DNA of 64,000 bases from an uncultured Chloroflexia bacterium (GCA_963802635.1 CAWDJJ010000003.1:636553-700552); one strand, 5' to 3'; positions 2,095 to 55,629 are shown, numbered from the stretch's first letter. Translations and numbers: made by a program. The notes: generated by a model not told the origin, from the sequence alone.

Positions 2095-2131
2095 TATACC
2101 CATATTTCTCATCTGAATGCAAGGTAATATA
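2095..2131. repeat. MITE-family minimal copy (ends fused: tataccc|atatttctcatctgaatgcaaggtaatata)
   Basis: shares both terminal motifs with the full copies at 12.9, 21.4, 47.96 and 55.55 kb. Confidence 0.6.
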
Positions 2132-2133
2132 AG

Positions 2134-2637
2134 TTATTTCTGCTTCGCCTGCCGCTCCTGTGCTTCATCAATCAAACTTACCAGATACTGGAGTTTCTTG
2201 ATGGTATGCTCCACATTGCGCTTGTTGCGCTCGTAGCCATCAGGGGCAAGTTGCTGAAACCAGGAATGGATATCTTCTTCAGAGATATCAAACCATTTAG
2301 CATCAGCTTGTAAACGCAAATAGACGCGCATCTGTGGGTCTTGTTTTTTGCGTAGCGGCTCCGGCTGCGTTTGAACCTCGCTAGCACTCTCACGCTCATC
2401 GACGGCAACCGCCTCTGCGATTTCAGTTGTCGGGTGCAATTCGTTATATAAAGCTTCGACATCTCCCGTACGGAAGAAAGCTTCACGACCAACGCCGCGA
2501 TGTGTCTTGATACGTCCTTCTTTGACCCAGGTATCAAGCGTCACACGGTCCACTCCTAAGCGCCGCGCCGTTTCTCCCGCATCCAAAAAAGCGAAGCGTC
2601 CCGCTGGCTTATTCAGCATTGTTTTTATCTCTTTCAC
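2134..2637 (-). CDS. helix-turn-helix (MerR/excisionase-type) DNA-binding protein
   Basis: 'RRLGVDRVTLDTWVKEGRI' HTH near the N-terminus; 167 aa. Confidence 0.5.
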   Translation of the reverse strand: MKEIKTMLNKPAGRFAFLDAGETARRLGVDRVTLDTWVKEGRIKTHRGVGREAFFRTGDVEALYNELHPTTEIAEAVAVDERESASEVQTQPEPLRKKQDPQMRVYLRLQADAKWFDISEEDIHSWFQQLAPDGYERNKRNVEHTIKKLQYLVSLIDEAQERQAKQK

Positions 2638-3165
2638 ACACGTTTCTTTCTGGAAGCCCCGCGTTTTTAAAGCGGGGATGAAAGAAAGACTGCCCGCAGG
2701 CAGCTTCTTCCATTCTTGTCAATAGGACCTCTTTCCTTTCTTTTGCATCCATACACGCATTCTGCTATCCTCCTTATGAGGCTTAGGCACTCTGGTTCGC
2801 CAGAGAGAGACAGTTCGCCTCAGAGTCCCTCTTCAACAGAAGAGAGGCGTTCCAGGCAAGAACCGATGCCTGGGGAACATGGTCGACGTCACAAGAACGC
2901 TCGTTATCCGGTATATCTGGATGACGACGGGGCAGTTGCCCCATTGCCCCTCAAGAGCATGGATGTATCGGTCGTTGAAGCCAAAGCTGCACGCCTGAAA
3001 CGGTTTGCAGAGTTGCGGTGGAGGCCAGATACAAGCCTCTGGTCTTCAGACCAAGAGGTAACTGACTCAATAGTAACGCACTTAGCATCTGTGTGTCTGC
3101 TCACGCAGGGAGGACCCTACGCGATCATCTATGTTAGCTTCGCTCTATTATTCTGCACTCCCATG

Positions 3166-3747
3166 CTAGTGGCGACGATAAAAGAGCAAGAGCGTGCTGC
3201 CATAGCGCCGCTCGTCGGTGAGTTCCAGTTGCTGGCAAGCCACAGCCAGTAGACCGGAGCGCTCTTTCGGATGAATCTGTACAATGACCAGCGCATCCTC
3301 CGTCATCAAAGCAGAACTATCCACCAGAGCCAGCGCACGGGCAGCCAATTCTTCGTACTGTGGTGGTGCAATATAGATGATATGGTATATGCTGCCTGCG
3401 TTATCCACGAGAACTGGTGCACCCTGGCGCGCCTGTAAGAACTTAAAAGAGTCGCCGTGGATGACATCTGCGCGCTCGGTGAGGCCAGTAATGTGCAGAT
3501 TTTCGCGCACCAACTTCACGATCTTATGGTTCATCTCAATAAAAGTTGCATGCTGTGCTCCACGGCTCAAAGCCTCAATACCAACACCCCCCGTACCCGC
3601 GAACAGATCCAGGAAACGCGCAGCATCTACCTCAGCCGAGATAATATCAAAGAGCGCAGTCTTCACACGGTCCATAATCGGACGCGTGCCTACGGTCTTG
3701 GGCGACTTTAAGCGACGCCCCTTCGCCTCACCTGTTACCACGCGCAT
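3166..3747 (-). CDS. rsmD: 16S rRNA (guanine966-N2)-methyltransferase RsmD
   Basis: 'LDLFAGTGGVGIEALSRGA' SAM-binding motif and 'IIYIAPPQY' (D/N-PP-Y) motif; start set at MRVVTGEAKGRR rather than the upstream track M. Confidence 0.8.
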   Translation of the reverse strand: MRVVTGEAKGRRLKSPKTVGTRPIMDRVKTALFDIISAEVDAARFLDLFAGTGGVGIEALSRGAQHATFIEMNHKIVKLVRENLHITGLTERADVIHGDSFKFLQARQGAPVLVDNAGSIYHIIYIAPPQYEELAARALALVDSSALMTEDALVIVQIHPKERSGLLAVACQQLELTDERRYGSTLLLFYRRH

Positions 3748-4930
3748 AGTGTTCCTCCTCCAGAACAACCAGTACAGCATCTACTTCTTCAACAAAGTAG
3801 TCCTGCTTAGCCCAGGAGATCAATGCCTCTACCTGATCAACTTTGAGCTTTTTCAGTGCCGAAATGCCCCATATGCCCTGAGCAACTGCTTGCAATTGCT
3901 CTTCAGAGATCTGCGAAATCGCCACCGTATTCAGCACTTGCAAACGCTTCGGACTAGCAATGGCAGCACCCTGAGATTCGCGCAAGGCATTGATCATGGT
4001 CCGCGCCTGCTCCAATAATTGTGGACTCACATTATCAGCCAGTCGAGCAAAATCTTCCACCTCTTCCAGGGCATCGTCCTCATCCGGGCTGATCTCTTCA
4101 TTGAAGCCATAGGCAGGACGTGCCTCCCGCATGCGCCCGGCATCTGTTCCAGGCTCATGTACTGCCTCCGCCTGGAAAGCCGAATCGTTCGCATGCACCA
4201 CTACAGCATTAGAGATGGGAATAGGCGCTGGCGGAGTTTCCTCAGCGCTCGGATCTGTTGGCACCGTAGCAGTACCGTCCCTGGGAGCAAGAGACATCAG
4301 ATGCTCCAACGCTTCACGCAGATTAATGCCAGTCGAGAGAGACTTGACCTTCAAGAGTTCCATCGCCTGCTTGGGAGTCAGATCCAGATTTTCTTTGATG
4401 TACTGAATGAATTCAGGGAGCGAAAGAGTGCTACTCGTATCGCCACTCGTTGGACCCAGAGTAAGGGGCATGCTAGCACCAACATTCGGACGGGTCGGAG
4501 GCAGTGTAGCGGCGGCACTACCCGCCGTGGCTTGCTCAAGTTCACCAGCATCGCCTCCAGCCGTAGATGGCTGAGGAGCAGTCAACGGTGCAGGTGTAGA
4601 AGCAGGTCTGGTATGCGTGTTTGCCGACCGCTGTGGCGGGGCTGGTCTTGTCCCTGGTACAGGAACTGGAGCAGTCTGAGCATTGTGCGCCAATTGCGGC
4701 ACACGCTGCTCCACGTGGTTTACCAACTGACGCATACCAACTTCAGCCTCGCAGAAGAGCTGCTCACGCGTCTCTGCAGTCGCCCCCAATGGTACAGGGA
4801 TACTCATTTCAATCGTATGAGTACGACCATCTTTTGTATATTGAGTCGCGTAGCGCAACCAGATATATGGACCGGTCTCACTCAAATTATTCACCTTCCC
4901 TATGAAATGACGTGACCTGATTTCTTGCAA
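3728..4930 (-). CDS. hypothetical protein with Pro/Thr/Ala-rich central linker
   Basis: 400-aa ORF with plausible N- and C-terminal halves joined by a low-complexity 'PAPPQRSANTHTRPASTPAPLTAPQPS' stretch; overlaps the rsmD start by about 20 bp. Confidence 0.5.
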   Translation of the reverse strand: MQEIRSRHFIGKVNNLSETGPYIWLRYATQYTKDGRTHTIEMSIPVPLGATAETREQLFCEAEVGMRQLVNHVEQRVPQLAHNAQTAPVPVPGTRPAPPQRSANTHTRPASTPAPLTAPQPSTAGGDAGELEQATAGSAAATLPPTRPNVGASMPLTLGPTSGDTSSTLSLPEFIQYIKENLDLTPKQAMELLKVKSLSTGINLREALEHLMSLAPRDGTATVPTDPSAEETPPAPIPISNAVVVHANDSAFQAEAVHEPGTDAGRMREARPAYGFNEEISPDEDDALEEVEDFARLADNVSPQLLEQARTMINALRESQGAAIASPKRLQVLNTVAISQISEEQLQAVAQGIWGISALKKLKVDQVEALISWAKQDYFVEEVDAVLVVLEEEHYARGNR

Positions 4931-5328
4931 CCAACGCCACCTGCGCTTGAAGTATGAGTATGTCGATTATGTAATAGCAAATCTTGCTACCCATATGCAT
5001 TTATTTAGAAGAGATGTGCTCACAGCAGCGTCCAGCTAAAGAAACAACGCTGCAAAGGCAAGGACACTACATGCGAATGGTTGCGCTAGCAACTACGCCC
5101 CCTATTATACCAAATTGGGTGCACCCCTGTCTGGTTAATTGAAGTAAAATATCTTGCCAAACGATGATATCTAGTGTATGGTAGAAGAATAAGAATATTG
5201 ACCTACTGAAATTACCTGTATCGGATTGTAACCGCTTACCCGTTGTAAAACATGAGCAATACATACAAACAAGATCCGTTTTGTTATTAGCCAGCTATTC
5301 TGTTCGAGAAAGTTGAGATGAGAGACTG

Positions 5329-5985
5329 ATGATTAGCCCTTCACCTACTCGACCACCAGCGACACAACCGCCAGAGGAAGTCAAAATAGTACGGACAGCA
5401 ACCACAAGAGTCAGACCCGGGCAAACGCCAACAGCCCTTACGATTAAAGCTATTTTCCGTCCTATCATTAAAGTGTTTTACTATATCATTACGGCAATCA
5501 AGAAGTACAAACTCATCACGTTGGGGGTAATTGTACTCCTTCTGGCGAGTATCGCAGCTACAACTTTTCTCACCACTGGCCAGCTTCCGCTAGGCATCGC
5601 CAGTGATCCCTTCAATTTCCACATCAATGGTGGCGATGGAGGCGGTAGCACGGTCAAAAACTGGCTGTATGCGTTGCGCTCGGGGAATGTGACTCAGTTA
5701 GAGTACCTGGATAAAAATATCTCATCGCCACCAGATGTCAGTACACTCGTTAGCACCTATAGCCAGGCAAAATCGAACTTCACCTGGAAAGCTATACATG
5801 TCGTGGGAGCCTATCAAGAGTCTGATACGACGGTGGACAGCTTCATACAGGTTGATCTCTCTGCCGATGGACCAGGCGGACCCACGACAGGATACCTGTT
5901 GTGGCATTTCGTTACCTACACGTCGGGAACAAACAATATTCTCGTAGAAGTGGCGCTTGTAGATAATCGCCCTAATGAGTCATAG
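5329..5985 (+). CDS. hypothetical membrane-anchored protein
   Basis: 218 aa; single TM 'LITLGVIVLLLASIAATTFL' after a Pro-rich N-terminus. Confidence 0.45.
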   Translation: MISPSPTRPPATQPPEEVKIVRTATTRVRPGQTPTALTIKAIFRPIIKVFYYIITAIKKYKLITLGVIVLLLASIAATTFLTTGQLPLGIASDPFNFHINGGDGGGSTVKNWLYALRSGNVTQLEYLDKNISSPPDVSTLVSTYSQAKSNFTWKAIHVVGAYQESDTTVDSFIQVDLSADGPGGPTTGYLLWHFVTYTSGTNNILVEVALVDNRPNES

Positions 5986-5993: not shown

Positions 5994-6026
5994 TATATTG
6001 CCTTGCATTCAGATGCATATGGGTAT
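5994..6026. repeat. MITE-family minimal copy (reverse orientation)
   Basis: tatattgccttgcattcagatgcatatgggtat. Confidence 0.55.
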
Positions 6027-12898: not shown

Positions 12899-13050
12899 TA
12901 ATACCCATAGGCATTCAGAAACGCAACTTTCGTTCCTCTTGGACTGTCAGAAACGCCACTGCCGTGGCTAGCCTTCGGCTCATCTGACAGAGCGGAGGTT
13001 GCTAGAACTGTGCTGAGGCACATTTCTCATCTGAATGCAAGGCAATATAA
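12899..13050 (+). repeat. MITE-family full copy (~150 bp)
   Basis: tacccataggcattcagaaacgc...ctcatctgacagagcg...catttctcatctgaatgcaaggcaatata with internal palindromes. Confidence 0.7.
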
Positions 13051-13072
13051 GTTGGAGTGTGTTCTTTTGAGT

Positions 13073-13486
13073 ATGCGTAGTCGCTTCATCGCTACCTGCA
13101 CCTTACTTTTAATTGCCCTCGGTGGAACGGCACTAGCAGCAAATGCGACCGTAAGAGCAATACAAAGTTTTCACCAACAACAATCTCAGGCCCAGGCTGG
13201 CGATGTTCATCTGCTACAATCCTGGATGACCATCCCCTACATCGCTCACACATATCATATACCCGAGAGCGTATTGTACCAATCATTGCAACAAGACCCA
13301 CATACAGCACATCACAAAACCCTGGCGATGCTTGCCGCAAAAAGCAAGCTTCCGGTTAAAGTGATCATTCAAGATGTGCAAAACACGATTTTACAGTATC
13401 GCAAGCAACACCCATTCAAACCACAAAGCAGACCGCCACTGTCGCCTATGCCATCCCAAATGACAGCGAAAGGGAGAGAATATTGA
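13073..13486 (+). CDS. hypothetical secreted protein
   Basis: signal peptide 'MRSRFIATCTLLLIALGGTALAANA'; the track start at 13010 lies inside the MITE copy and is rejected. Confidence 0.45.
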   Translation: MRSRFIATCTLLLIALGGTALAANATVRAIQSFHQQQSQAQAGDVHLLQSWMTIPYIAHTYHIPESVLYQSLQQDPHTAHHKTLAMLAAKSKLPVKVIIQDVQNTILQYRKQHPFKPQSRPPLSPMPSQMTAKGREY

Positions 13487-15830: not shown

Positions 15831-18314
15831 CTATCTGGATCTTTTTTGCCTGCCTAGATCACGTTCGATATGCTGGACATCTTTGACTCTCTCAAGGCGC
15901 GTAAAGAGGCGCTGCAGTTGTTCCTGGTCGCTAATTTCCACTGTGACATTCACTACAATCGTCTCTTTATTGCCGCCGATATGGAAATTCACGGACATCA
16001 AGTTTGCCCCGGTATCAGAAACGACGGTCGCCAAGTCACGGATCAAGCCACTACGATCACGAGCCGTAATCACAATCGGCGCGTGGTATGTTTGCTGCTG
16101 CATGCCATGCCAGCTCACAGGAACCAGCCGTTCACTATCACGTTCGCGGAAGCGGGCCAGGTTGCGGCAATCAACACGATGCACAATGACCCCTTTCCCG
16201 CGACTGACAAAGCCCACAATCTCATCTCCCGGCAGAGGACAACAACAATTCGCCAGCTTCGTCAGCAAGCCGCTCACCCCGGCAACTTCCATTTGCCCAC
16301 TACTGACCTGCTTCGCACTGGTCGTAGGCAACGAGATTGGCTCCTCACTCTCCTTTGTATCCTTGCTCTCTTTGCCCTCACGGAGTTGCCAGTATTCAGC
16401 GAGCTTGACAATAGCCGCACGCGGACGCACATCATCAGCACCAATAGCCGCCAACAGGTCATCTAACGACTCCACATTTAGCTCTTTGCACAGCCAATCC
16501 GCAGCGTCCTCAGTCACACTATCCAGACTGCGCTGGCTCATCGCCTTCAACTCACGATCCAGCCGCTCACGCCCAATCTGGATATTGATAGGGCGTTCAT
16601 AGGTTTTGAGATAACGCCGAATCTTGTTGCGAGCTGCCGCCGTCCGCGCAAAATTTAACCAATCGCGCGTAGGATGCGCCGTACGGTTCGTCACAATATC
16701 GACGATGTCCCCGCTCTTCAATTCATAGTCCAGCGGCACCATACGCGTGACCAGGCGTTCCCCATCGTTATTGCCCACCTGCGTGATAATACGCGCGCCC
16801 GCACATCTATCACCAACCATCGTATGGATACGATAGGCAAAATCGAGCGGCGTCGAACCAACCGGCAGATCTTTCACCTCACCCTTAGGCGTAAAGACAA
16901 AAATCTGCTCCTGGAAGATATCCCCTTTGACGGCTTCAACAAACTCAGCGTCACTCGCATTGGCAGTGCGCAGATCATGCTGCCAATCAGCCAATTGGTG
17001 CAACCAAGTCAACAGTTCTTTGGCAGACGCCGAAGCATGATCACCAACGTCCTTGTAGTGCCAGTGCATGGCGACACCGTACTCGGCCATCTCATGCATC
17101 GCGTGCGTACGAATCTGGATCTCTACCAATTGATCATCCAGGCAGAAAACAGTCGTATGGAGCGCACTATATCCATTGGGCTTAGGATTGGCAATAAAAT
17201 CCTTGATACGCCCTTCTTTCGGCTTCCAGAGACTGTGTACATGTCCCAGCGCAATATAGCAATCAGTTGTGGTATCCACCAGAATACGGAAGGCAATCAG
17301 ATCGTGGATCTGGCTGATATCAGCCGCAGCTTTCAAATGCTCCAGGTCTTCAGTATCACCCATGTTGCGCGCCAGCTTGCGATAGAAACTATACGCGTGC
17401 TTCACACGTCCAGATATCTCCGCATTGACACCGACTGCAGCCATCTCTGTGCGCAACACACCACACACACGCTCAACGTAAGAACGCCAGTGCTCGCTCT
17501 CCATTTCGACGATATCGCTGACCCAGCTATATTTATCTGGCTCAAGCACCTGAAAAGCGAGATCCTGCAATTCACTCTCCACCTTCGACATACCCAGACG
17601 TCCAGCTAGCGGCGCATAAATCTCGCGCGTCTCCTCTGCCATCATCAGCATCTCTTGACGATCACCTTGATAGAAAGGCACACACACAAGGCGCATCGCA
17701 TGCAAACGATAAGCGAGCTTAAGCAAGACAACGCGTGGATCATCAGCCATCGCCATAAACATCTTACGCACTGTTTCTGCCTGCTGACGACGCATAGCTT
17801 CACGGATGCGTGGCTTCTTGCTTTCAACAGACTGAGGCATACCCGTACTCTCGCGCTCATCATATACTTTTTTGGAAGTTATAGCTGGCAGGCTCTGAAT
17901 AGCGAGCATAGCACCTGTCGCAACATTCTGCTTCTTGCGCTCCAGGATATTAAGACGTGCCATGCTCCCGACGACGCGCGCAGTAGGAGCACCTAGCACC
18001 TGTTCGACCCGCTCAAGCAAGAGGAGATCGGCATCGACGGCCTCGAAGACCAGGCCAGCAGAGATACCAATCGCATCAACATGCATGACCTGCGCAAGAA
18101 TAGTTGTGACCGCTAGCGCATGTTCCAACGGAGGAATTGGACGCGTTGCCATAGCAGGAACATCCTGACAGGTCTCTTGCGCAAGATTGAAGGCCAGCAA
18201 CACCCTATCAACGTCACCAGGAGTCATATAGGAACTCACAAGTGAGAGCAGGTGTGCCATAGCATCCGGGTAGGTATGGCCTACATAATGTTGTTCTACA
18301 GACCTATCTATCAT
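15831..18314 (-). CDS. relA: RelA/SpoT-homolog (p)ppGpp synthetase with degenerate hydrolase domain
   Basis: 827 aa; synthetase motifs 'RVKHAYSFYRK', 'NGYSALHTTV', 'EIQIRTHAMHEMAEYGVAMHWHYK'; TGS and ACT present; HD motif replaced ('LVFEAVDAD' instead of 'LLHDVVEDT', 'RLHAMR' instead of 'RLHNMR'). Confidence 0.85.
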   Translation of the reverse strand: MIDRSVEQHYVGHTYPDAMAHLLSLVSSYMTPGDVDRVLLAFNLAQETCQDVPAMATRPIPPLEHALAVTTILAQVMHVDAIGISAGLVFEAVDADLLLLERVEQVLGAPTARVVGSMARLNILERKKQNVATGAMLAIQSLPAITSKKVYDERESTGMPQSVESKKPRIREAMRRQQAETVRKMFMAMADDPRVVLLKLAYRLHAMRLVCVPFYQGDRQEMLMMAEETREIYAPLAGRLGMSKVESELQDLAFQVLEPDKYSWVSDIVEMESEHWRSYVERVCGVLRTEMAAVGVNAEISGRVKHAYSFYRKLARNMGDTEDLEHLKAAADISQIHDLIAFRILVDTTTDCYIALGHVHSLWKPKEGRIKDFIANPKPNGYSALHTTVFCLDDQLVEIQIRTHAMHEMAEYGVAMHWHYKDVGDHASASAKELLTWLHQLADWQHDLRTANASDAEFVEAVKGDIFQEQIFVFTPKGEVKDLPVGSTPLDFAYRIHTMVGDRCAGARIITQVGNNDGERLVTRMVPLDYELKSGDIVDIVTNRTAHPTRDWLNFARTAAARNKIRRYLKTYERPINIQIGRERLDRELKAMSQRSLDSVTEDAADWLCKELNVESLDDLLAAIGADDVRPRAAIVKLAEYWQLREGKESKDTKESEEPISLPTTSAKQVSSGQMEVAGVSGLLTKLANCCCPLPGDEIVGFVSRGKGVIVHRVDCRNLARFRERDSERLVPVSWHGMQQQTYHAPIVITARDRSGLIRDLATVVSDTGANLMSVNFHIGGNKETIVVNVTVEISDQEQLQRLFTRLERVKDVQHIERDLGRQKRSR

Positions 18315-18607: not shown

Positions 18608-21064
18608 CTATTTTCCTATTGCACGCTCTACATTGACAACATTTTTCACCTGGCGCAGACGACGTAAAATACGTTCAATCTGGTCGATGACACCCGTCTC
18701 CGCCGCAATTTCCAGCGTGGCTGTAATCACGGCTTTCTGTAAAGAAGCATTGGTGGTAGAGGTAACAGCCGCCATATTGATACTCGAATCAGCGACCACA
18801 GCCGCCACATCGCGCAACAAGCCCGCACGATCATGCGCAACCAGCGTTATCGGCACCAGATAGTACTCCGGCTTTATACGTAACCAGTCGAGGTCTACCA
18901 GCGCACTGGTGTTATCACGGTAACGGCGTAATGTACGACAGTCGGCGCGATGTACCAGCATACCCTTGCCCGGTGAAAAAAAGCCCACTATCGCATCCCC
19001 CAGGATAGGACAACAACATTGCGCCAGTTTCACCAGACGCACAATCGCGCCATCTTTGTCCTGAAGATAATCATTTTCATACTCATCAGGATGGTTGTCA
19101 TTTTCGGCGTTGACCTCATCTCGTTTTGGCAAGAGCGGAAGCAGATGCTCTAGCACCTGCTCGATGAGCAAATCTTCACGACCAAGTGCGATGTAGATGT
19201 CGTCACGCGTGGCATACTTTTTGAAGGTTGTACTGGCCGCCACGCTGTCCGTGCAGAGATGTAGCAGTAGATCCTCAACAACATCACAGATACCACCCTG
19301 ACCAGTAGCCTTCAAAGCCAGATCCAGCCGCTCACGGCCCAATTGCAAATTGATCTCACGTTCATAGGTTTTAAGATAACGCCGAATTTTGTTACGAGCC
19401 GCCGCCGTCCGCGCAAAAGAGAGCCAGTCACGCGTCGGATGCACCGTACGATTCACCATGATATCGACAATCTCGCCGCCTTTCAATTCATAGTCGAGTG
19501 GCACGAGACGAGTGACCAAGCGGCCACTCTCATCCTGATTGGTAATAATACGCGCACCGGCACAATGATCACCCAGATCGGTATGAATACGGTAAGCCAT
19601 ATCCAATGGCGTCGAACCACGCGGCAGATCCTTTACATCACCTTTCGGCGTAAACACAAAGATCTGCTCTTGAAAGATATCCCCTTTGACTGCCTCAACA
19701 AATTCATCTGCACTGCGCTGTGGCAATTCACGCTGCCACTCGCGTAGCTGCTCGATCCAGGCCACCATCTCACGATACGAGAGACGCCAACTGCTCGGCA
19801 CAGGCTCTTTTTTGCTACTCCCCGCCTTTTCGTCCTTGCCCACTCGCTCCTTCAGATACCAGTAGCTGGCAATGCCATAATCAGCAGTGCGCTGCATATC
19901 ATAGGTGCGGATCTGGATCTCTGCCAGACGGTCCTGCAAACAAAAAACAGTCGTATGCAACGACTGATAGCCATTTAATTTAGGAGTGGCAATAAAATCT
20001 TTAATCCGACCGTCCTTCGGTCGCCACAACGCGTGGATATGTCCTAAAGACAGGTAGCATTCATAATCGCTATCAACCAGGATACGGAAGGAAACAAGAT
20101 CGTGGATCTGGCTGAGTTCGTTGCTACTTGCCAGCGGCATATCCTCCAACTTGCGATTGATGCTAGCCAGGTGCTTACGCCACGCCAGCACATCGGCATG
20201 AATACCGGCTCGCTCCATCTCCTCACGCAGAATATGACACACCTCGTCCACAAACGGCTGGCGTTTCTGTACTTCATCCTCAACTTGCCGGGCCAGGCGC
20301 GTATATTTTTCAGGTTCGAGATAGCTAAAGACGAGATCCTCTAACTCAGCCTGCGCAATATACATACCCAGACGACAGGCCAACGGAGCATAAATCTCAC
20401 TGGTCTCACGCGACGTATTTTGTTGCTGGGCAGGCGACATAGCACTGAGCGTTCGCATATTATGCAAGCGATCAGCAATCTTGAGCACAACCACACGCGG
20501 ATCTTCAGCCATCGCCAGTAGCATTTTACGCACAGTTTCAATGCGCTGACGTCGCTTGTCAACCAGGGACGGCGGCGCGGGGAGTAGTGGGTCTGCACAC
20601 TGTGCTTCGGAGGAGGCAGCTTTTCTCGCTGTCGTAGCAGGCTTGCCAGCCAACGCATCAAACTTCGTCACCCCATCAACAATGTTAGCAACCACCGCAC
20701 CAAACTGCTCGCGTAAGTTGTCAAGGGAAAAATCAGTATCTTCAACCACATCATGCAACAGCGCTGCGACGATACCGTCCGCATCAATGCGCATGACAGC
20801 TAGCAGGAAGGCTACCTCTAAGGGATGCTGGATGTATGGCTCACCAGAACGGCGCACAACCCCAACATGTGCCTGATCGGCCAGATCATAGGCACACTGA
20901 ATTTTCTCCATATCGTGCGGAGCAAGATACTGACCTGTTTCGGCCAGCAGGTCCTCAAGAGTCATTTGCGAAGGAGACAAGTTCGCCTCCGATGCTGTCG
21001 CCGTTCTCATCAAAGGTATAGCGGACCCAGACTGATCAGCAACTTTTTCGAAATTGGTAGCCAT
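18608..21064 (-). CDS. rel: bifunctional Rel/SpoT-type (p)ppGpp synthetase/hydrolase
   Basis: intact HD motifs 'QHPLEVA...LLHDVVEDT', 'RLHNMRT'; synthetase 'NGYQSLHTTV', 'EIQIRTYDMQ'; TGS, ACT; track start is a TTG at 21079, first ATG at 21064. Confidence 0.85.
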   Translation of the reverse strand: MATNFEKVADQSGSAIPLMRTATASEANLSPSQMTLEDLLAETGQYLAPHDMEKIQCAYDLADQAHVGVVRRSGEPYIQHPLEVAFLLAVMRIDADGIVAALLHDVVEDTDFSLDNLREQFGAVVANIVDGVTKFDALAGKPATTARKAASSEAQCADPLLPAPPSLVDKRRQRIETVRKMLLAMAEDPRVVVLKIADRLHNMRTLSAMSPAQQQNTSRETSEIYAPLACRLGMYIAQAELEDLVFSYLEPEKYTRLARQVEDEVQKRQPFVDEVCHILREEMERAGIHADVLAWRKHLASINRKLEDMPLASSNELSQIHDLVSFRILVDSDYECYLSLGHIHALWRPKDGRIKDFIATPKLNGYQSLHTTVFCLQDRLAEIQIRTYDMQRTADYGIASYWYLKERVGKDEKAGSSKKEPVPSSWRLSYREMVAWIEQLREWQRELPQRSADEFVEAVKGDIFQEQIFVFTPKGDVKDLPRGSTPLDMAYRIHTDLGDHCAGARIITNQDESGRLVTRLVPLDYELKGGEIVDIMVNRTVHPTRDWLSFARTAAARNKIRRYLKTYEREINLQLGRERLDLALKATGQGGICDVVEDLLLHLCTDSVAASTTFKKYATRDDIYIALGREDLLIEQVLEHLLPLLPKRDEVNAENDNHPDEYENDYLQDKDGAIVRLVKLAQCCCPILGDAIVGFFSPGKGMLVHRADCRTLRRYRDNTSALVDLDWLRIKPEYYLVPITLVAHDRAGLLRDVAAVVADSSINMAAVTSTTNASLQKAVITATLEIAAETGVIDQIERILRRLRQVKNVVNVERAIGK

Positions 21065-21370
21065 ACTGAATACCTGCAACTACATTCTGTACCATCTGTC
21101 CGCGCCTGATCGGTTCTCCCCACGCTTTCGGCACTACAATTACAAGTATATACCCATCCTGGACAAAACAAATGTTACCACTCTATTATAAAGAGCAAAA
21201 TTTGACTGTCAAGCGGATACTGTTTGCCATCCCAAATCCCAAAATGCTTGAGGAAGATAAAACCAGGTACGCAATGGAGGTACATACCATGTACATTCGT
21301 CTATAAGAGGAAACGCAAACGCAGCCTGCATTATTCCACGAGAGAAAGCAACCAGGCTGGCTCCATAATA

Positions 21371-21600
21371 TACCCATAGGCATTCAGAAACGCGTGCTTA
21401 ATTCCGCCTGGCAACGAAGCTGACGCTTCTACTGCTGCGCAGTCAGCCAGGCGGATCAGCAACTGCCGTGGCTCCTCGTAGGCTGTCAGAAACGAGGCTG
21501 TCGCCGCTAGCTTCGCTCATGTGGCGGAGCGGCGTGCGCCCTGACGGCTCATCTGACAGAGCGGCGTGCGCTTCGCTCATCTGAATGTAAGGCAATATAT
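21371..21600 (+). repeat. MITE-family full copy (~230 bp)
   Basis: same termini as the 12.9 kb copy with a longer internal palindromic region. Confidence 0.7.
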
Positions 21601-22265: not shown

Positions 22266-22604
22266 TTATGTATCTTTTATATTATCTTTATACGATTCTG
22301 ACTTGACGTTTATGAGACAATAACCAAAAGGAATAATGGGCTGTAAAAATCTGGTAGCTCTCCACTTCAATCGCTCAATAAAAGCCGTATTGAACTCGGT
22401 ACATCCTTTTGTCTTCAAGAGAAGCTCTTTTGCTTTCTCACTTGTGCCCTTTGTCAGTTTTCTTGTGATCTCCACGACCCGCTTTTCCTTGCTATGCTTG
22501 ATGACCGTGGTAATGCAGAGATACAGCAGGTCTCTGGACGCTGGCTTTTTTTCAAGCTCCCCCTCCTTTTTCACCAGTTCGTGGAGAGCTACCGAAGTCG
22601 GCAC
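22266..22604 (-). pseudogene. transposase C-terminal remnant (DDE 'ER' region)
   Basis: 'NTAFIERLKWRATRFLQPIIPFGYCLINVKS' resembles IS1-like transposase C-termini; no N-terminal catalytic part. Confidence 0.3.
22300..22356. repeat. 57-bp IS-end-like sequence, copy A
   Basis: gacttgacgtttatgagacaataaccaaaaggaataatgggctgtaaaaatctggta, about 90% identical to copy B. Confidence 0.7.
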
Positions 22605-22620
22605 TCCGCTTTTTTAGCTG

Positions 22621-23595: not shown

Positions 23596-23609
23596 CTTGT
23601 GCTCCTTTC

Positions 23610-24185
23610 TCAATGACCTTGTTCATCCTGAGTGGTGTTCCACCTGATGGTCTCCTTTTCCGATCCTCCTCTTCTTCTCATATTATACCAGCTCTTTCTT
23701 GCATCAACGGCTGCTGAGCGCTTCTTCTCCGAAAACTGACCCTCCCTTGCCCATTTTCTCCCACAACTGCTCTTCGGCATCTCCGCCACGCACCCGCCTC
23801 GTATCATCTCTTCTCCGGCGACAGGAATGCGGCTCTTCTGGGCCGGTCCCCTTGAGGTCGGCACGCACGCGCACCAAGCGCAAAGAGATGGACTCTTTTT
23901 TCGTCGCTGTCCAGCCCAGGATAATGCCAGACTTGCCACACCATGGTGGATACCCCCATATCCGTAGTCTTGGCTGCCCCATCGGTCGCCCAAGCGCTCC
24001 ACCCAATGCTTCGCAGAGTCGTAGGACCATCCATCAGCCGCATCATCCGTCGGCAACACCCTGGATGCTACCGGAGCCACTGGCTCCTCGATCACGCCTG
24101 CCGTGGCTGGCTCCTCGGCAACCCTATGCTTGGAGCCAGGAACATCGCTGGCTTCCTCCTCTGGCTCCTGGTGATGCTTCACCAT
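23610..24185 (-). CDS. hypothetical protein (possibly decayed; 3' half may be UTR)
   Basis: acidic plausible N-terminal half; C-terminal half is purine-rich basic sequence that looks like the 5'UTR/RBS of the downstream gene; alternative frames also open. Confidence 0.25.
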   Translation of the reverse strand: MVKHHQEPEEEASDVPGSKHRVAEEPATAGVIEEPVAPVASRVLPTDDAADGWSYDSAKHWVERLGDRWGSQDYGYGGIHHGVASLALSWAGQRRKKSPSLCAWCACVPTSRGPAQKSRIPVAGEEMIRGGCVAEMPKSSCGRKWAREGQFSEKKRSAAVDARKSWYNMRRRGGSEKETIRWNTTQDEQGH

Positions 24186-24365
24186 AAACAGCCTCCGACG
24201 ATCTTCGGCGGCGGCGATATCTCGTGCCAGGTGCTCATCTCCCCAAAGGGTCCTGCGGCCCTGTCAGCCACGAAGCGGCTCAACATCGTACAGAAGAGGG
24301 GCATCTTGTTATCGCCGTCTGGGTGCCGCCGCTCTGGCCCAATCACCTTCGTCTCCTGCGCGACC

Positions 24366-24422
24366 GACTTGACGTTTATGAGATAATAACCAATAAGAAT
24401 AATGGGCTGTAAAAATCTAGTA
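24366..24422. repeat. 57-bp IS-end-like sequence, copy B
   Basis: direct repeat of copy A just upstream of tgt; minus-strand translation '...RFLQPIILIGYYLINVKS'. Confidence 0.7.
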
Positions 24423-26503: not shown

Positions 26504-26697
26504 TGTGCTTATACCCACATTGCATGCAGGCAATCAGTGCGGTACAATAGGCCCGATAGAGATACATCATAGCAGCAGAAGAGGGTGAAAGCAATGGATA
26601 TAAGAAAATCTATCACGCTCTCCCTGCGAAACGTCTTTTGCGGTCCTGATAAGCAAGGAAGCAGCATTTATAGCATTGAGTTAAGGAGTATCTGGGC

Positions 26698-34025: not shown

Positions 34026-34412
34026 ATATTGCCTTGCATGGGTGAGCGTCAGATTTTTGCAAACGGGTAGGGGCGGCGCTTGCCTCCGCCCCACAGGCCG
34101 TCCCAGGCACATCCAGGGCGCACGCGAGGTCCGCCCCTACCCGTTTGCTCCTGCCTCTACTCAACCGGTCAGGTGCTCCAGTGCAAAAAATTGACGGCCA
34201 CCCGCCTTGCATTCAGATGAGAACTGTGCTGCCGCACATTTCTAGCAACCTCCGCTCTGTCAGATGAGTCGAAGGCTAGAGGCGGTAGCCTCGTTTCTGA
34301 CAGACCAAGAGGGACGAGAGTTGCTGATCCGCCTGACTGACTGCGCAGCAGTAGCTGCGTCAGCAGCGTTGTCAGGTGGAACAAGAACGCATTTCTGAAT
34401 GCATATGGGTAT
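34026..34412 (-). repeat. compound MITE-family region (reverse orientation) with embedded 16-bp perfect inverted repeat
   Basis: tatattgccttgcat... ; aaacgggtaggggcgg (34061-76) / ccgcccctacccgttt (34131-46); then ccttgcattcagatgag...ctgtcagatgag...gcatatgggtat. Confidence 0.6.
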
Positions 34413-37810: not shown

Positions 37811-37877
37811 ATACCCATATGCATTCAGATGAGAAATATGGTCTGGCACATTTCTCATCTGAGTGCATGGCAATATA
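37811..37877 (+). repeat. MITE-family short copy
   Basis: tacccatatgcattcagatgagaaatatggtctggcacatttctcatctgagtgcatggcaatatat. Confidence 0.6.
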
Positions 37878-38302: not shown

Positions 38303-38710
38303 AACTAACCCCTTTCCCCGATCTAATATCGAACCGTCGGAAGTGCTTACTACATGTTCGTGAAATGTTCTCTCAACACATTTCTGTCCATGTATTTGCA
38401 TAATGTAAAATAGGACATCCTCTAAAGATGCATCTATGATACAATTCAAACTTCTTTTAGATTATACTAGATAATTTCTCTTTTTGTCAATGAATGATTT
38501 GTTAGATCATTGAGTATATTACAAATATATACTAAATTTTAAGAATAACAAAAGAAATCAATATAGCAAAAAGTACGTATAACTGGTACGTCGCCCGTTA
38601 CAGTGGGAGTAATCGTGCAGTACAGGAGATAAAAAAATTGCGAAGATACATTTTTGTTGAGGGGATATTCATTGCGATGTTTGCCCAACATTTTTTTAGC
38701 CGCTACGATT

Positions 38711-38752
38711 GCCTTGCATTCATACCCATAGGCATTCAGATGAGAAGTGTGA
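38711..38752. repeat. MITE-family fragment
   Basis: gccttgcattcatacccataggcattcagatgagaagtgtgag. Confidence 0.5.
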
Positions 38753-38762
38753 GTTTCTCGTA

Positions 38763-40064
38763 TCAACTTTTACCGGGCTGATCAAAGAACAAATCTCCGG
38801 TACGCCTGATGCGTGGGAGATGTGTCCTTTGTGGCGATCTCTGGCGTAGAGCTTCGGGATATTTACGCGCTAAACGTGCCTGCTGCCGATGCTCTTTCAA
38901 CTCCCTGAACTCAGCCGCCAGACGACGATAAAGCAGCTCCCACTGATCCAGGACCTTTACGCGGTCATGTGCAGCGATAATATTGAGACTCTGCGCTCCC
39001 ATGCGAGCACGCAGTTCTTCATCGGACAGCAGTTGATCAAGGTAGTGAGCCAACTCCTCACTATTACCTGGCTGAAACAAGAAACCGTTTTTACCGTGAT
39101 GTATCAGTTCGGGTAACGCGTATGCATTAGCTGCCACTACAGGCAAGCCACAGGCCATAGCCTCCATAGTGGACAGACTCTGCAAATCGGCTTCAGAGGG
39201 AATCGCAAATATAGCCGCTGCACGGCGCAACTGCAACAAATCAACATCACGCACGAAGCCCAGAAAGCTGACGCGATCAGCGATCTGCAAGCGCTCCACC
39301 TGAGCACGCAACTCGGCTTCAGCAGGACCAGAACCCACCAGCACTACGTGCGCCCTGCCCGGTAGCTTGACCATGGCATCCAGCAGCACATCAATGCGCT
39401 TCTCCTCACTTAGTCGGTTGACATGGATGATCAGTGGACGATCTTCGGGGAGCCTAAAACGGCGCAACACCTGTAGATCAGGCTTGCCAGGAGAAAACTT
39501 CGTCAAATCGATACCATTGGAGATAGCAGCCGCCGGAGCGCGCAAACCGTGCTCATAGAGCAAATTCAGGGCTGTGCTCGTCGGTGCCGTCACATATTCG
39601 CAGCGATTACAGAAATGTACCAGATACGAATATGTAATAGTACTGAATGGCTTGCCAATCAGCGGGTCATTCATCAGCGAGCGGCTAATATTAACCGGCA
39701 GATAGTGGTTCGTCGCGATGATTGGTTTACGTAAACCACCAGCTAGGATCTGCGCAATATTGCCCAGTACAATAGGCGAGTGGATATGAATAATATCCGG
39801 GTCACAGCGCTTGATTAAATTACGAACAGGCATAAAGGGCAGAAACGGAATGCGCAGATCTTTATATGTAGGCCATTCAAAAGAAGAATAGCGATAGACA
39901 CGCACTTTGTGTTCCACGCGATGCACGTCACGTACCCCATAGCTTGGTGCTGCAACCCAGACCTGATGTCCTCGCTCTGCGAAGTCAACAGCCAGGCCAC
40001 AGGTTACGGTGGGCACACCACCCACCATCGGCGGATACTGGTCAGTTACGATCATTATGCGCAT
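38763..40064 (-). CDS. GT4-family (GT-B) glycosyltransferase
   Basis: 'MRIMIVTDQYPPMVGGV' N-terminus; C-terminal 'EAMACGLPVVAANAYALPELIHHGKNGFLF'; Arg-rich tail. Confidence 0.75.
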   Translation of the reverse strand: MRIMIVTDQYPPMVGGVPTVTCGLAVDFAERGHQVWVAAPSYGVRDVHRVEHKVRVYRYSSFEWPTYKDLRIPFLPFMPVRNLIKRCDPDIIHIHSPIVLGNIAQILAGGLRKPIIATNHYLPVNISRSLMNDPLIGKPFSTITYSYLVHFCNRCEYVTAPTSTALNLLYEHGLRAPAAAISNGIDLTKFSPGKPDLQVLRRFRLPEDRPLIIHVNRLSEEKRIDVLLDAMVKLPGRAHVVLVGSGPAEAELRAQVERLQIADRVSFLGFVRDVDLLQLRRAAAIFAIPSEADLQSLSTMEAMACGLPVVAANAYALPELIHHGKNGFLFQPGNSEELAHYLDQLLSDEELRARMGAQSLNIIAAHDRVKVLDQWELLYRRLAAEFRELKEHRQQARLARKYPEALRQRSPQRTHLPRIRRTGDLFFDQPGKS

Positions 40065-44452: not shown

Positions 44453-44684
44453 TTTTTCTCTCCTGCTCAACCTGCATTATCCCGTATGCAGGTTGAGTAC
44501 TTTTACGCAAAGCAGAAATAGACCCTAGAATTGACTAGTCAAATAGCCTTTATTCTTTCATACTTCTTTATAAGAGCTCTTTTGACATATACATCTATGC
44601 CCGAAGTGACACATATTTCTGTCACTCCTTACGACAACATTCTTAGGAACAAGGAGGTAGTACACAGTTTTTTCTGTCCCTGTT

Positions 44685-44848
44685 GCCTTGCATTCAGATG
44701 AGCCAAAGGCTAACCACCTCCGCTCTGTCAAATGAACCGAAGGTTAGAACGAGTAGAGTTTCCTGATCCTCCTGACCGATTGACTGATCGATCACGCAAC
44801 ATTGTTGTTGGGTGGAACAAGAACACGCTTCTGAATGTCTATGGCTAT
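44685..44848 (-). repeat. MITE-family full copy (reverse orientation)
   Basis: gccttgcattcagatgag...ctgtcaaatgaacc...cttctgaatgtctatggctat. Confidence 0.65.
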
Positions 44849-47666: not shown

Positions 47667-47957
47667 TGTAAATACTCCTTCATAACTCATATAGTAGCGA
47701 GTTGCCTCCCTTGCGTCTTGTCTAGCGGAGTAGCAAACTCACTAAGATCGAAACATCTTCAGGTATAGCGTTCTTGAGAGGACACTATCCCCACGATTAG
47801 TTGTATGCGATGAAGCATGACAATGTCAAGCAGAAGCGTAAATCTGTATCAAAAAGGCTGGACAGTTGCTTGTTTTCGCCGCTCCATGTAGTCAGTATAG
47901 CTCAATGGAGCAAGGTATGGCCTGTCCTTTGTGCCAGATTTCTATAGATTATTGATA

Positions 47958-48040
47958 ATACCCATAGGCATTCAGAAACGCCACTCTCGTGGCTAGCACT
48001 GTGCTGCGGCACATTGCTCATCTGAATGCAAGGCAATATA
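47958..48040 (+). repeat. MITE-family copy (~83 bp)
   Basis: atacccataggcattcagaaacgccactctcgtggctagcactgtgctgcggcacattgctcatctgaatgcaaggcaatata. Confidence 0.7.
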
Positions 48041-48090
48041 GCTATCGGATAGCATGAAGATGTATCAAGATAGATTGTACACAACGACAT

Positions 48091-53011: not shown

Positions 53012-54424
53012 TTAGTAATCAGGCGGCTCATTATTGAAGCCCGCAGCGATATCTACCACCCTGTTTGCCTCCACCTGAATCTTTTTTACTGCTGATCTAG
53101 CATCATCATGTTCTGTTTCTAAGGCTTCTAACGCTTCCCTTGTAGAAGACAAAAGCCCTGTGCTCTTTACCATTTTGTTTAGATAATTCTGCTCCACAAA
53201 GTTCTTTGCACGTTCCTCTGCATTCTGTTGAACTTCGGAGTATTTCAAGGGACTTGAGGATCTGGCATTTTCCACTAAATCCTCCGCAAAAAATTCGGAA
53301 GTTATTATATCAAGTGCTTTGTTGTTTATATTATTAAATATTTCGTCTTCTCTCCTTTTTATTACTTTTTTTATTGCATATCTTACTATTTTAGCATGTT
53401 GTTCATTAATGCGTTCACCTCTTGGAACTCCATCTAATTCAGCATTCACTTGTCTTTGTGTTGCAACCTTTATATCATCATTCCTTCTTATCGCAGATTC
53501 AACCGCCTCATTCTGTTCTTCACGGTAATGCTCTAGCAATTCTGATCTCAATATAGGCGTTTCAGAACGACCTTCACGAGCTTCATATGCTCGTTGCTGT
53601 TCCATGAGGTCATTTAGAGAAAGACCAGATCGTGCTCCATCATCTGTCCCGAGATGCTCTGTTACACGAGATGGACCTGCACCGGCATCCTGAAAAGCTT
53701 CATATGCTCGTTGTTGTGCCTGGAGGTCCTCTGGAGAAAGTTCTAGTTGTCGTGCTATGTCATCAAGGCCTGTTCTAGCGTCCTGAAGAGCTTTATATGC
53801 TTGTCGTTGTTCCAGGAGGTCCTCTGAAGAAAGATCCAGTTGTTGCATTAGATCACTAAGGCCTTTCTCCGTGTTACCTAACCCGGAATACTCTGTTAAA
53901 CGAGATGAACTTGGAACGGGAGGATCTGTTAAGGAACGCGGCGGCAACTCACGTTTAGAATCATCGAGATTCCGACCTGGTTGGCGAGGACCCATTGGTC
54001 TCTTTGGATCTGCATCCAGTTGGTGCGGATTAAATTCACCTGATGGCCGATTACCAGACCCATCTGGAGGATGACCCTCCCGCATATCAGATCCATCACT
54101 TGAAGAACCTGCCAGAGAAGCTCTCATTTGTCGCATTTGACGTAGCCGCTGCTGGAGTGTCGATGGCCGATCACCGGAATCACCTGATATATCGGAGCCA
54201 CCACCTGAAGAATTTGTTAAGGAACGCGGCGGTCGCCCACGGCTAGACTCATTAGAGCGAGGTCCCATCCGTCGCCTTCCTAGATTTGCTTGCTCTCGGA
54301 GCACGTTAGCACCATCTGATGGCTGATTACCAGACCCATCTGGAAGACCGGATTCATTGCCTTCTAAAGGATGACCTCTACCTGGCATACCAATTTTCTC
54401 CGCTATTATAGCAGTATATAACAC
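53012..54424 (-). CDS. low-complexity hypothetical protein with nested internal repeats
   Basis: 470 aa; DNA repeats of about 80 bp (x3, 53570-53830) and about 140 bp (x2, 53925/54216); protein repeats 'SPEDLQAQQRAYEAFQDA'; AT-rich segment. Confidence 0.5.
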   Translation of the reverse strand: MLYTAIIAEKIGMPGRGHPLEGNESGLPDGSGNQPSDGANVLREQANLGRRRMGPRSNESSRGRPPRSLTNSSGGGSDISGDSGDRPSTLQQRLRQMRQMRASLAGSSSDGSDMREGHPPDGSGNRPSGEFNPHQLDADPKRPMGPRQPGRNLDDSKRELPPRSLTDPPVPSSSRLTEYSGLGNTEKGLSDLMQQLDLSSEDLLEQRQAYKALQDARTGLDDIARQLELSPEDLQAQQRAYEAFQDAGAGPSRVTEHLGTDDGARSGLSLNDLMEQQRAYEAREGRSETPILRSELLEHYREEQNEAVESAIRRNDDIKVATQRQVNAELDGVPRGERINEQHAKIVRYAIKKVIKRREDEIFNNINNKALDIITSEFFAEDLVENARSSSPLKYSEVQQNAEERAKNFVEQNYLNKMVKSTGLLSSTREALEALETEHDDARSAVKKIQVEANRVVDIAAGFNNEPPDY

Positions 54425-54933
54425 TAACTAGAGTGCAATAATTGATGCACATTATTGGCTACCTACTAATAGTAGCCTATGGCAGATACAACAAATAGTT
54501 CAGCGTGACAGCCCCTTCAGAGACGATATGGGCGTTCAATACCTTTGCCTATTGCGCGGAATTCTTATCCAAGGGTTTCTCTTTCATTCTTGTGTCCATG
54601 CTTATCCTGAGCACGCACTCTCTGAGAGAGTGTTTGGTTTCGGCTCAATCCTGACAAAAAGTGCGCGCTCTAAACACTAGCTGAGAGAAGCAGGAGGCGC
54701 GATGAACTTTAGCAAAATCATCGAGAGAGTCCGCGATGTCTCTGGTGACTGATGCAGAGTCGGTCGCCTCCCCACCTCCTGCTCCTCGACCTTACAGGAA
54801 TAAGTGTATTGGTTAACGTATGTATTGACAAGTACGCACAATTTTGTGGCATAGTATCAAAAATGATACCACATCAGGCCCGTTTTACCCCTTCCGCATA
54901 GTATCCCACCGAAGGAAATAAGGACAATTTTCT

Positions 54934-55527
54934 ATGTTCACCGTACGAGAAGAATTGGTCAAACGGTGCCATCATGGTCTCTTCCAGGAATCTTCTGGCT
55001 ATAGTATTATTAATACAGGAAATTTAGCTTGCTGTCACTTGAAATCTAAAGGAGGAATAGCCGTGAGTTTATCGAACGTTCCACTGCGTCCGACGCATGT
55101 CGTTACCAGTTTCCTGGAACGTACAGATGAAAAAACGCCTGCTATACTACTTGTTCGACGGAGTCAGCGTGTGGGAAGCTATCATGGGCACTGGGCAGGC
55201 ATAAGTGGCTTCGTGGAACAAAATGTGACACCGGATGAGCAGGCGTTTACAGAAATTCGTGAGGAGACTGGCTTGCAGCATGATCAGGTACGTATACTCA
55301 AGCAAGGAAAGGTCGTTGAGCACGTTGATGAAGGGTTGGGACGGCACTTCTACATCCATCCCTTTCTCTTCAAGGTGTTGACTCCCGAACAGATTCAGAC
55401 TGATTGGGAAGCAACTGAGATGCGCTGGGTTGATCCTGCTGCCTTGCACGATTATACGACGGTACCTAAATTGCAAGAGGCATATGCTTCGGCCATATCT
55501 GGCGAGCCGGTGGCTGATAGCCTTTGA
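54934..55527 (+). CDS. NUDIX hydrolase
   Basis: Nudix box 'GFVEQNVTPDEQAFTEIREETGL'. Confidence 0.65.
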   Translation: MFTVREELVKRCHHGLFQESSGYSIINTGNLACCHLKSKGGIAVSLSNVPLRPTHVVTSFLERTDEKTPAILLVRRSQRVGSYHGHWAGISGFVEQNVTPDEQAFTEIREETGLQHDQVRILKQGKVVEHVDEGLGRHFYIHPFLFKVLTPEQIQTDWEATEMRWVDPAALHDYTTVPKLQEAYASAISGEPVADSL

Positions 55528-55550
55528 AAAAATGGCCTGGCGATGTGAAA

Positions 55551-55629
55551 TACCCACAGACATTCAGAAACGCAACTCTCGTTGCTAGAAATATGCTGTG
55601 GCATATTTCTCATCTGAATGCAAGGCAAC
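55551..55629 (+). repeat. MITE-family copy (~80 bp)
   Basis: tacccacagacattcagaaacgcaactctcgttgctagaaatatgctgtggcatatttctcatctgaatgcaaggcaaca. Confidence 0.7.

Follow-up and report, generated by a model that had tools for sequence, protein, structure and literature searches.

A lineage-restricted family of branched-hairpin, MITE-like repeats between the genes of an uncultured Ktedonobacteraceae bacterium

We analyzed a stretch of 64,000 nucleotides from an uncultured Chloroflexia bacterium (GCA_963802635.1 CAWDJJ010000003.1:636553-700552; the window, below), in which a first-pass annotation had reported an abundant family of palindromic repeats resembling miniature inverted-repeat transposable elements (MITEs), always located between genes. 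The PsuG and PlsX proteins place the window in the Ktedonobacteraceae (Chloroflexota), with PlsX 83% identical to that of Tengunoibacter tsumagoiensis and 80-81% identical to those of Dictyobacter alpinus and Ktedonosporobacter rubrisoli. The genes that neighbor the repeats encode FtsH-like, dUTPase, RelA/SpoT, LplA, PsuG, PlsX, SodA, LepB, NUDIX and enoyl-CoA hydratase proteins. The repeats themselves are 33-386 nt long and contain no open reading frame (ORF) of their own. They occupy both orientations and all lie between real genes, as had been claimed.

Family copies have in common a left end, ATACCCATAGGCATTCAGA, and a right end, TCTGAATGCAAGGCAATATA. In the window, the left-end 19-mer TACCCATAKGCATTCAGAW matched ten times at three or fewer mismatches (0.06 expected), and the right-end 29-mer matched five times (0.00 expected). 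We delimited copies by matching left with right ends strand by strand and by searching with a covariance model built from seven short copies. The model retrieved every copy and nothing further within the window, and repeat finding independently clustered the same positions. In all, 13 copies or remnants are listed here: seven are full (67-386 nt), two are minis, one is chimeric and three are old remnants (stem P2 and module B are described below).

1363..1381, plus strand: old remnant, left end ACACCCATATGCATGCAGA only, with 3 mismatches; abuts the TGA stop of a DUF4388/PatA_N gene.
2096..2131, plus strand: mini copy C1, left tip ATACCCATA fused to right part TTTCTCATCTGAATGCAAGGTAATATA; 2 nt from the stop of an HTH_17 gene.
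4987..5040 (start approximate), plus strand: old degenerate copy, a left-end-like CTACCCATATGCAT followed by a hairpin.
5994..6026, minus strand: mini copy C2, 33 nt, the two ends fused; between the stop of the gene at 5329-5985 and the start of an FtsH-like gene.
12901..13049, plus strand: full copy C3, 149 nt, with an inner module nested in its outer three-way junction; right end 24 nt upstream of the ATG at 13073, left end 48 nt from the dUTPase start.
21370..21599, plus strand: full copy C4, 230 nt, the most branched, with module B and inner modules; between divergent genes, a RelA/SpoT paralogue and the gene at 21698.
26511..26536, plus strand: old remnant, ATACCCACATTGCATGCAGGCAATCAG, directly after an LplA-like gene.
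34026..34411, minus strand: full copy C5, 386 nt, in which module B and an inner module are joined by a nested MITE of foreign origin; between divergent hydrolase and psuG genes.
37811..37877, plus strand: copy C6, 67 nt, a near-perfect simple hairpin without the P2 branch; between converging plsX and LEA/KGG genes.
38705..38763, no strand assigned: chimeric C7, where two truncated copies meet, the right end ATTGCCTTGCATTCA in reverse complement running into a left end, TACCCATAGGCATTCAGATGAG...; directly adjoins a GT4 gene at its stop codon.
44679..44848, minus strand: full copy C8, 170 nt, with diverged ends; left end 30 nt upstream of the ATG of a CBM5/12 gene at 44878.
47958..48040, plus strand: full copy C9, which has the 83-nt basic form and fits the model best (109.8 bits); between the lepB stop and the sodA start.
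55550..55632, plus strand: full copy C10, 83 nt; between converging NUDIX and enoyl-CoA hydratase genes.

By end pairing and the covariance model, every position listed in the first-pass annotation is occupied by a real family member; two starts moved (12899 to 12901 and 44685 to 44679). In addition, the copy at 34026 measures 386 nt, owing to the unrelated 164-nt MITE nested in it, and that at 38711 is a junction of two truncated copies. On proper alignment the copies are related, and they form one genuine family, far beyond chance.

We compared the window with a sister genome, the metagenome-assembled genome (MAG) MFD06714.bin.2.100, also an "uncultured Chloroflexia bacterium", using five syntenic loci (L010-L014). 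The two are syntenic over ~62 kb at ~88% DNA identity (aligned blocks 82-93%). PsuG of the window and the MAG are ~91% identical, and at 90% identity the MAG PsuG and PlsX cluster together with close relatives of the window proteins. The orthologous MAG sites of C2, C3, C4, C5 and C8 were empty, with gaps that coincide with the consensus ends within 1-2 nt. For C5, the BLAST blocks meet at a single MAG position (L010:9848), and exactly 34026-34411 is missing from the MAG. The five junctions, in element orientation and with the element in parentheses, are as follows.

C5: filled ATCTTC(ATACCC...GGCAATAT)ACTTG; empty in the MAG, CTTCTTCACTTG.
C3: filled TTTCGTA(ATACCC...GGCAATATA)AGTTGG; empty in the MAG, TTTTGTAAGTTGG.
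C4: filled CCATAAT(ATACCC...GGCAATAT)ATACGAC; empty in the MAG, CCATCATATACGAC.
C2: filled GTTCCTAG(ATACCC...GGCAATAT)AACGTG; empty in the MAG, GTTCCTAACAT (also read as CTGTATGT / TAGGAAC).
C8: filled GTTAG(TAATAGCC...GGCAACA)GGGAC; empty in the MAG, GTTAGCGGGAC (GTTAG-C-GGGAC).

C10 is also missing from the MAG, which has a 74-nt spacer there with flanks too diverged for an exact junction. At the C1 site the MAG carries an unrelated 42-nt sequence, and at the C6 site its intergenic sequence is unalignable and holds no copy. Degenerate copies are common to both genomes at three sites (1363, 4988 and 26517). At the first, the MAG retains an intact, full 76-nt copy (L011:11266-11341); thus, the 1363 copy is older than the split of the genomes and was truncated in the window. 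The degenerate copy at 4987 recurs at L011 ~15302, and the orthologous site of the 26511 remnant has a longer degenerate version, CTACCCCGTTGTCCTCATAGACGGAGAGG...TGCATGCAGGCAATCAG.

Over the same ~62 kb, the window holds seven full and two mini copies and the MAG one full copy. The estimate of one copy per 6 kb made by the first-pass annotation is accordingly right for the window and wrong for the syntenic DNA of the sister, such a density belonging to this lineage or region rather than to the clade at large. The repeat itself is the exact unit that comes and goes. Since orthologous sites are empty, the copies almost certainly constitute a mobile repeat family that multiplied recently in the window lineage, where there are at least six gains in ~62 kb, as against none in the same region of the sister. 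Because the decayed remnants are shared, the family was already in the common ancestor.

The family is not peculiar to the window, as three or more contigs of the sister genome and one unrelated soil contig also carry it. Among species-representative genomes, the exact right-end 24-mer was found at eight loci, all in MAG MFD06714.bin.2.100, on three contigs. None of the eight overlaps the window, and the MAG holds further copies besides. A scan of JGI metagenomes returned the one soil contig, in which the flanks are unrelated and the interior of the repeat is more diverged. There was no match in plasmids and none in viral contigs, save one chance match in coding sequence. Tengunoibacter and another Ktedonobacteraceae MAG carry no copy around plsX (~42 kb). 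A literature search found no paper connecting Ktedonobacter with MITEs or palindromic repeats. The family is undescribed and lineage-restricted, dispersed but rare in the sister genome, and would be the first small mobile repeat family to be characterized in the Ktedonobacteraceae, which are soil Chloroflexota with large genomes.

The interior of the repeat folds into a three-way junction, P1-AAC-P2-T-P3-CA-P1', on either strand. The basic 83-nt form reads ATACCCATAG, P1 (GCATTCAGA), AAC, P2 (GCNAC, a 4-nt loop, GTNGC), T, P3 (AG....CT, 3-10 bp), CA, P1' (TCTGAATGC) and AAGGCAATATA. Structure prediction bore out the palindromic character that had been noticed, as both strands fold far better than shuffled sequence (z = -4.7 to -6.2). 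Longer copies carry a second, paralogous junction (CCTCTTAGACCGTCAGAAAC..P2..TAG..P3..CTCATCTGACGGAGAGGAGG), which lies within the 3' arm of P2 in C3, C5, L002 and L006 and between P2 and P3 in L004b. The internal self-complementary motifs that had been picked out in the sequence, CTGTCAGAAACG and CTCATCTGACAGAGCG, are real and correspond to the two arms of this nested module. A different hairpin module, module B, is present in C4, C5 and C8. Module B (TTCCGCCTGGCAACGA...CAGCCAGGTGGATCAGC) also stands alone, partly duplicated, at L012:15850-15960, the sole such case in the sister genome, within a ~760-nt MAG-specific region that is missing from the window (window 59489-59537).

We compared 17 modules. 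About 95% of stem positions are Watson-Crick, with nine variants of P1, seven of P2 (for example GCCAC/GTGGC, GCAAC/GTTGC, GAGGC/GCCTC and ACGGC/GCCGT) and ten of P3; the joints AAC, T and CA are invariant. In a seven-sequence alignment, 95.9% of cells pair, four pairs are altered on both sides, and the covariation score was equaled by none of the shuffles (0/500). On the right-to-left strand, the P2 loops are G-N-N-A in 16 of the 17 modules (GAGA, GAAA, GACA, GGCA, GGTA), and short P3 arms read GCGAAGC or CCGAAGG. G-N-N-A and G-A-A are unusually stable DNA mini-hairpin loops. G-T and A-C mismatches showed no clear strand preference in the 17 modules, in which such events are few and some are of shared ancestry. 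The compensated variation of the stems may stem from template-switch correction of quasi-palindromes and not from selection; this process would alter the stems faster than the non-palindromic joints.

At L005:4314-4377, two convergent genes are separated by a perfect 25-bp hairpin (CCTACTCTATGCAGATGAGCAATGT...ACATTGCTCATCTGCATAGAGTAGG). It has the CAGATGAG/CTCATCTG box of the family without the family ends, and may be a relative or a terminator with the same box.

The modular build invites comparison with the BOX elements of Streptococcus pneumoniae, which have the modular order boxA-boxB(n)-boxC. Both have non-identical, conserved left and right modules around a variable number of internal modules, both form a stable fold, and both lie between genes. 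There is no sequence similarity, however, and the modules of the present family are nested, while those of BOX are in tandem. For the present family, mobility is directly supported by the empty sites.

How might these repeats move? Their two ends share a terminal TA and a perfect, subterminal 9-bp inverted block (GCATTCAGA/TCTGAATGC). For this reason, we rate as likeliest, with a probability of roughly 0.6, that the copies are small, non-coding, non-autonomous, MITE-like mobile DNA that is moved in trans at TA sites within a narrow clade of Ktedonobacteraceae. Each element would move as a self-contained unit that runs from ATACCCATAGG... to ...AAGGCAATAT(A), and would land in AT-rich intergenic DNA in either orientation, usually at TA and often with a start or stop codon 0-40 nt away. 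The enzyme mobilizing it in trans would be a transposase from another part of the genome that recognizes both ends (the terminal TA plus GCATTCAGA/TCTGAATGC) and inserts at TA dinucleotides. The branched-hairpin interior would be a passenger, diversified by deletions, by duplication or nesting within the element, and by template switching that corrects palindromes. Enzymes of the IS630/Tc1-mariner type target TA and duplicate it, a mode of movement also ascribed to the RUP and Correia elements; for a TA-targeting DDE mechanism in particular, we put the chances at even.

The target sites are partly in keeping with this. At the empty sites of C3, C2 and C4 there is a single TA at the junction, and at the filled sites there is a TA on each side; TA is found on both sides in 10 of the 16 copies that could be scored on both sides. 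Ten of 19 copies have TA as their left flank, no longer motif being seen there, and none of the five junctions examined has a target duplication of 3 bp or more. A check for target-site duplications is consistent with TA at three of the five junctions, and not at C5 and C8.

Several observations weigh against movement in trans at TA. The TA fit of C2 and C4 requires 1-nt variation at the left tip. The junctions of C5 and C8 (2/5) lack a TA duplication, C5 being a clean insertion. The outer 10-11 nt are asymmetric (ATACCCATAG versus the reverse complement TATATTGCCTT), with 11 of 18 positions matching. The invariant AAC, T and CA joints and the G-N-N-A loops (16/17) are not required by a transposase that recognizes ends. 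Finally, in the ~230 kb of DNA examined, we found neither a transposase with family ends nor a copy that brackets an ORF. At the ~12% divergence between the genomes, two misfits in five cannot decide whether TA is duplicated; we infer the type of enzyme, TA duplication as a rule and any effects on neighboring genes. The description of the repeats as MITE-like holds for mobility, by virtue of the five empty sites, and in part for the hallmarks, since the inverted block is subterminal and 9 bp long. Also typical of MITEs are the mixed orientations, the intergenic placement beside housekeeping genes, the deletion derivatives and the chimera, the copies at two breaks in synteny, and a short-read contig that starts inside C5 (see below).

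No cognate autonomous insertion sequence with matching ends, which the first-pass annotation had suggested checking for, was found in the same ~230 kb, and at none of the eight MAG loci carrying the exact end do paired left and right ends enclose an ORF. We considered several candidate partners. At L007, a right end with no matching left end follows an ORF that resembles an oxidoreductase (translation, by eye) and not a transposase. A TnpB fragment at L014:20320-20468 on the minus strand, the C-terminus of a TnpB (Cas12f1-like_TNB) gene at the edge of the locus, has a downstream end unlike the family. The neighbors of the copies are all housekeeping genes, which leaves no partner transposase among them.

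Known TA-duplicating bacterial MITEs include RUP of S. pneumoniae, which is thought to be moved by an IS630-type enzyme, and the Correia/NEMIS elements of Neisseria. Like these, the present repeats are small (~70-230 nt), non-coding and intergenic, occur in both orientations and have a long self-complementary fold; they insert at TA (three of the five testable sites), sit beside gene starts and come in size variants with internal deletions. They differ from RUP and Correia in the asymmetry of the terminal 10-11 nt, in the inconsistent TA duplication, in an interior that is a recursive three-way junction and not a plain hairpin, and in that no cognate insertion sequence was identified.

A different mode of movement, which we consider unlikely, is transposition of folded single-stranded DNA by an HUH/Y1-type enzyme (as in IS200/IS605 or the tyrosine transposases, RAYTs, associated with repetitive extragenic palindromic sequences, REPs) or by another structure-specific recombinase, inserting beside a short target that is not duplicated. 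C5 and C4 fit the duplication-free insertion of exactly ATACCC..GGCAATAT, and the ends are asymmetric rather than inverted. The structure has been kept through compensatory changes (the four double-sided pairs, and the seven P2 and ten P3 variants), the joint nucleotides are invariant, and the stable loop caps are strand-specific (16/17 P2 loops, and the GCGAAGC/CCGAAGG P3 arms). However, covariation in a palindrome can arise by template-switch correction without selection, both strands fold equally well, and the G-T versus A-C mismatches are without clear strand bias. There are also no separate left and right subterminal hairpins, as the two ends pair with each other within a single global fold; no 4-5-nt target is conserved beside the left end; and the gene tables of the sister loci L010-L014 contain no Y1 transposase gene (Y1_Tnp domain).

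REPs are 20-40 nt long with a GTAG or CGTC head, number in the hundreds and are served by RAYT transposases. With REPs, bacterial interspersed mosaic elements (BIMEs) and palindromes derived from IS200/IS605, the present family shares intergenic palindromic repeats, the lack of a long target duplication and a structure that is more conserved than the sequence. Unlike REPs, it is 67-230 nt long, rare in the sister genome and devoid of a GTAG or CGTC head, which also speaks against single-strand movement, and the Y1 transposase that would be expected beside a REP/RAYT system was not seen in those gene tables. A paper on elements of this group, PMC3733652, came up in the literature search.

A further, improbable reading is that the three-way junction, with its invariant AAC, T and CA joints, co-varying arms and one-strand G-N-N-A and G-A-A caps, is itself active, either as the folded single-stranded substrate of a novel structure-specific transposase or recombinase or as a catalytic nucleic acid, and that it targets its own kind. 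If so, the nested copies would be the result of an element inserting into a junction of its own kind, and the family would represent a new bacterial class, a duplication-free "hairpin transposon".

We judge it quite improbable that the copies specify a conserved three-way-junction RNA, as genes or as cis-elements (be it a small RNA, a ribozyme that cleaves itself, or a site that stabilizes or processes mRNA), and are kept by that function. The invariant joints and co-varying stems of the junction are what such an RNA would have, the loops on one strand are GNRA-like, and copies that lie 7-24 nt from start codons (C3, L001, L004, L002, L009) must be transcribed or supply the promoter. Yet the whole window gave 0 Rfam matches at gathering scores, and copy C9, searched against Rfam 15 at E <=10, gave only two chance matches of 11-14 bits. 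The cores of the hammerhead and hairpin ribozymes misfit by eye: boxes that look like those of the hammerhead (CUGAUGA / GAAA) or hairpin ribozyme lie on opposite strands or in the wrong order. The copies stand in both orientations relative to their neighbors and in convergent, divergent and tandem gene contexts, and their presence and absence between sister species, together with the decay of copies into minis and remnants, argue against a required function at each site. Nor is there a consistent promoter or terminator signal: a consensus scan of the ends for either returned nothing consistent, and reading the right end as a TTCTCA-16 nt-TATAAG promoter is weak and speculative. The window showed no association of copies with tRNA or tmRNA. 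Integron attC sites were also rejected, as orientations are mixed, the neighbors are housekeeping genes and there are no GTTRRRY core sites.

That the copies are immobile, an ancestral intergenic signal lost by deletion in the sister genome, is barely credible: three sites do have shared, decaying copies, and hairpins are deletion-prone and mini copies exist, but this account needs five independent deletions, exact within 1-2 nt and with little or no microhomology, and it sits badly with the near-consensus ends of the copies at empty-site loci, which suggest youth, with the lack of any copy in the ~42 kb around plsX of Tengunoibacter and another Ktedonobacteraceae MAG, and with the lack of the exact 24-mer in all other species representatives.

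Short hairpins that have spread through intergenic DNA by an unknown mechanism are also found in organelles. Two papers describe hairpin-forming selfish repeats of this kind, the palindromic repeats of Volvox (PMC2670323) and the repetitive hairpin elements of sponge mitochondria (PMC2800124). Those repeats differ from ours in being organellar and simpler hairpins, with no evidence of kinship.

A second bacterial hairpin family was present in the Ktedonobacteraceae MAG ERZ25039538 (contig_43203, L017), the one that has no copy of the present family around plsX, where copies of GTAACTATTCAG...CTGAATAGTTAC lie at 908-1006, 4388-4539 and 16242-16475, with three head-to-tail left halves at one site. 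Like the family in the window, it is a multi-branched hairpin with ATTCAG/CTGAAT in its outer stem, intergenic and multicopy. It differs in sequence, has clean terminal inverted repeats of 12-19 bp and was missed by the covariance model. Branched-hairpin MITEs seem to be a recurring feature of Ktedonobacteraceae.

Returning to gene context, the ends of copies are often 0-40 nt from start or stop codons. The first-pass annotation had placed copies on the 5' regions of genes, and this holds for C3 (24 nt from the ATG at 13073) and C8 (CBM5/12 ATG, 30 nt away). A divergent promoter region of 69 nt was split by C3, whose insertion point is 12 nt upstream of the predicted -35 box of the dUTPase gene. 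Two MAG copies, in L001 and L004, stop 17 nt short of starts preceded by AGGAG; in L009 the left end is 7 nt from a start. The remark that copies generate false start codons was also correct. The ORFs that overlap copies (13010-13486, GTG; 44812, GTG) are artefacts of upstream GTG/TTG codons, because the recorded start of the CBM5/12 gene is 44878 and the gene calls of the sister genome agree.

C7 and C9 lie exactly at breaks in synteny with the MAG; at C9, MAG homology runs up to precisely 47957 and picks up again at 48075. Relative to its flanks, segment 38767-47957 of the window has the opposite orientation and another location in the MAG (contig positions ~1.47, 0.27 and 0.34 Mb), with breakpoints at window 38609-38767 (C7) and 47957-48075 (C9) versus L010, L014 and L012. 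Since the gene order of Tengunoibacter is that of the window at the first break, that rearrangement occurred in the MAG lineage. A short-read contig of the window genome starts inside C5, as if assembly broke at the repeat.

Copies have inserted 7-50 nt from housekeeping-gene start codons and mark two breaks in synteny; the family is thus a live driver of intergenic change in this clade, and possibly of changes in expression and of rearrangement. The covariance model and exact boundaries should aid annotation, given that the repeats introduce false start codons and interrupt short-read assemblies. The insertion chemistry and recursive junction architecture also make the family a tractable case for finding the enzyme.

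Some other repeats and loci lie in or near the same DNA. The foreign MITE nested in C5 (34040..34203, no strand assigned) is 164 nt long, is unrelated to the family and has 22-nt terminal inverted repeats, GGGTGAGCGTCAGATTTTTGCA / TGCAAAAAATTGACGGCCACCC. It is flanked by a clean 9-bp target duplication, GCCTTGCAT, at 34031-34039 and 34204-34212, and its inner motif, CAAACGGGTAGGGGCGG, recurs in the MAG at L013:2763-2789, L013:10533-10560 and L014:6128-6158. A ~2-kb segment at window 22356-24366 is missing from the sister genome, and a direct repeat of 57 nt lies at its two borders (22300-22356 and 24366-24422). The ORFs of this segment had no Pfam match and contain internal tandem repeats at 22694-22848 and 22959-23372.

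In T. tsumagoiensis (L016:8629-9400), four tandem repeats of ~202-211 nt with internal inverted repeats lie upstream of the response-regulator/plsX operon. The window also contains tandem, paralogous RelA/SpoT-type genes at 15831-18314 and 18608-21079, with 70-79% DNA identity over several blocks, and this pair is also kept in the sister genome.

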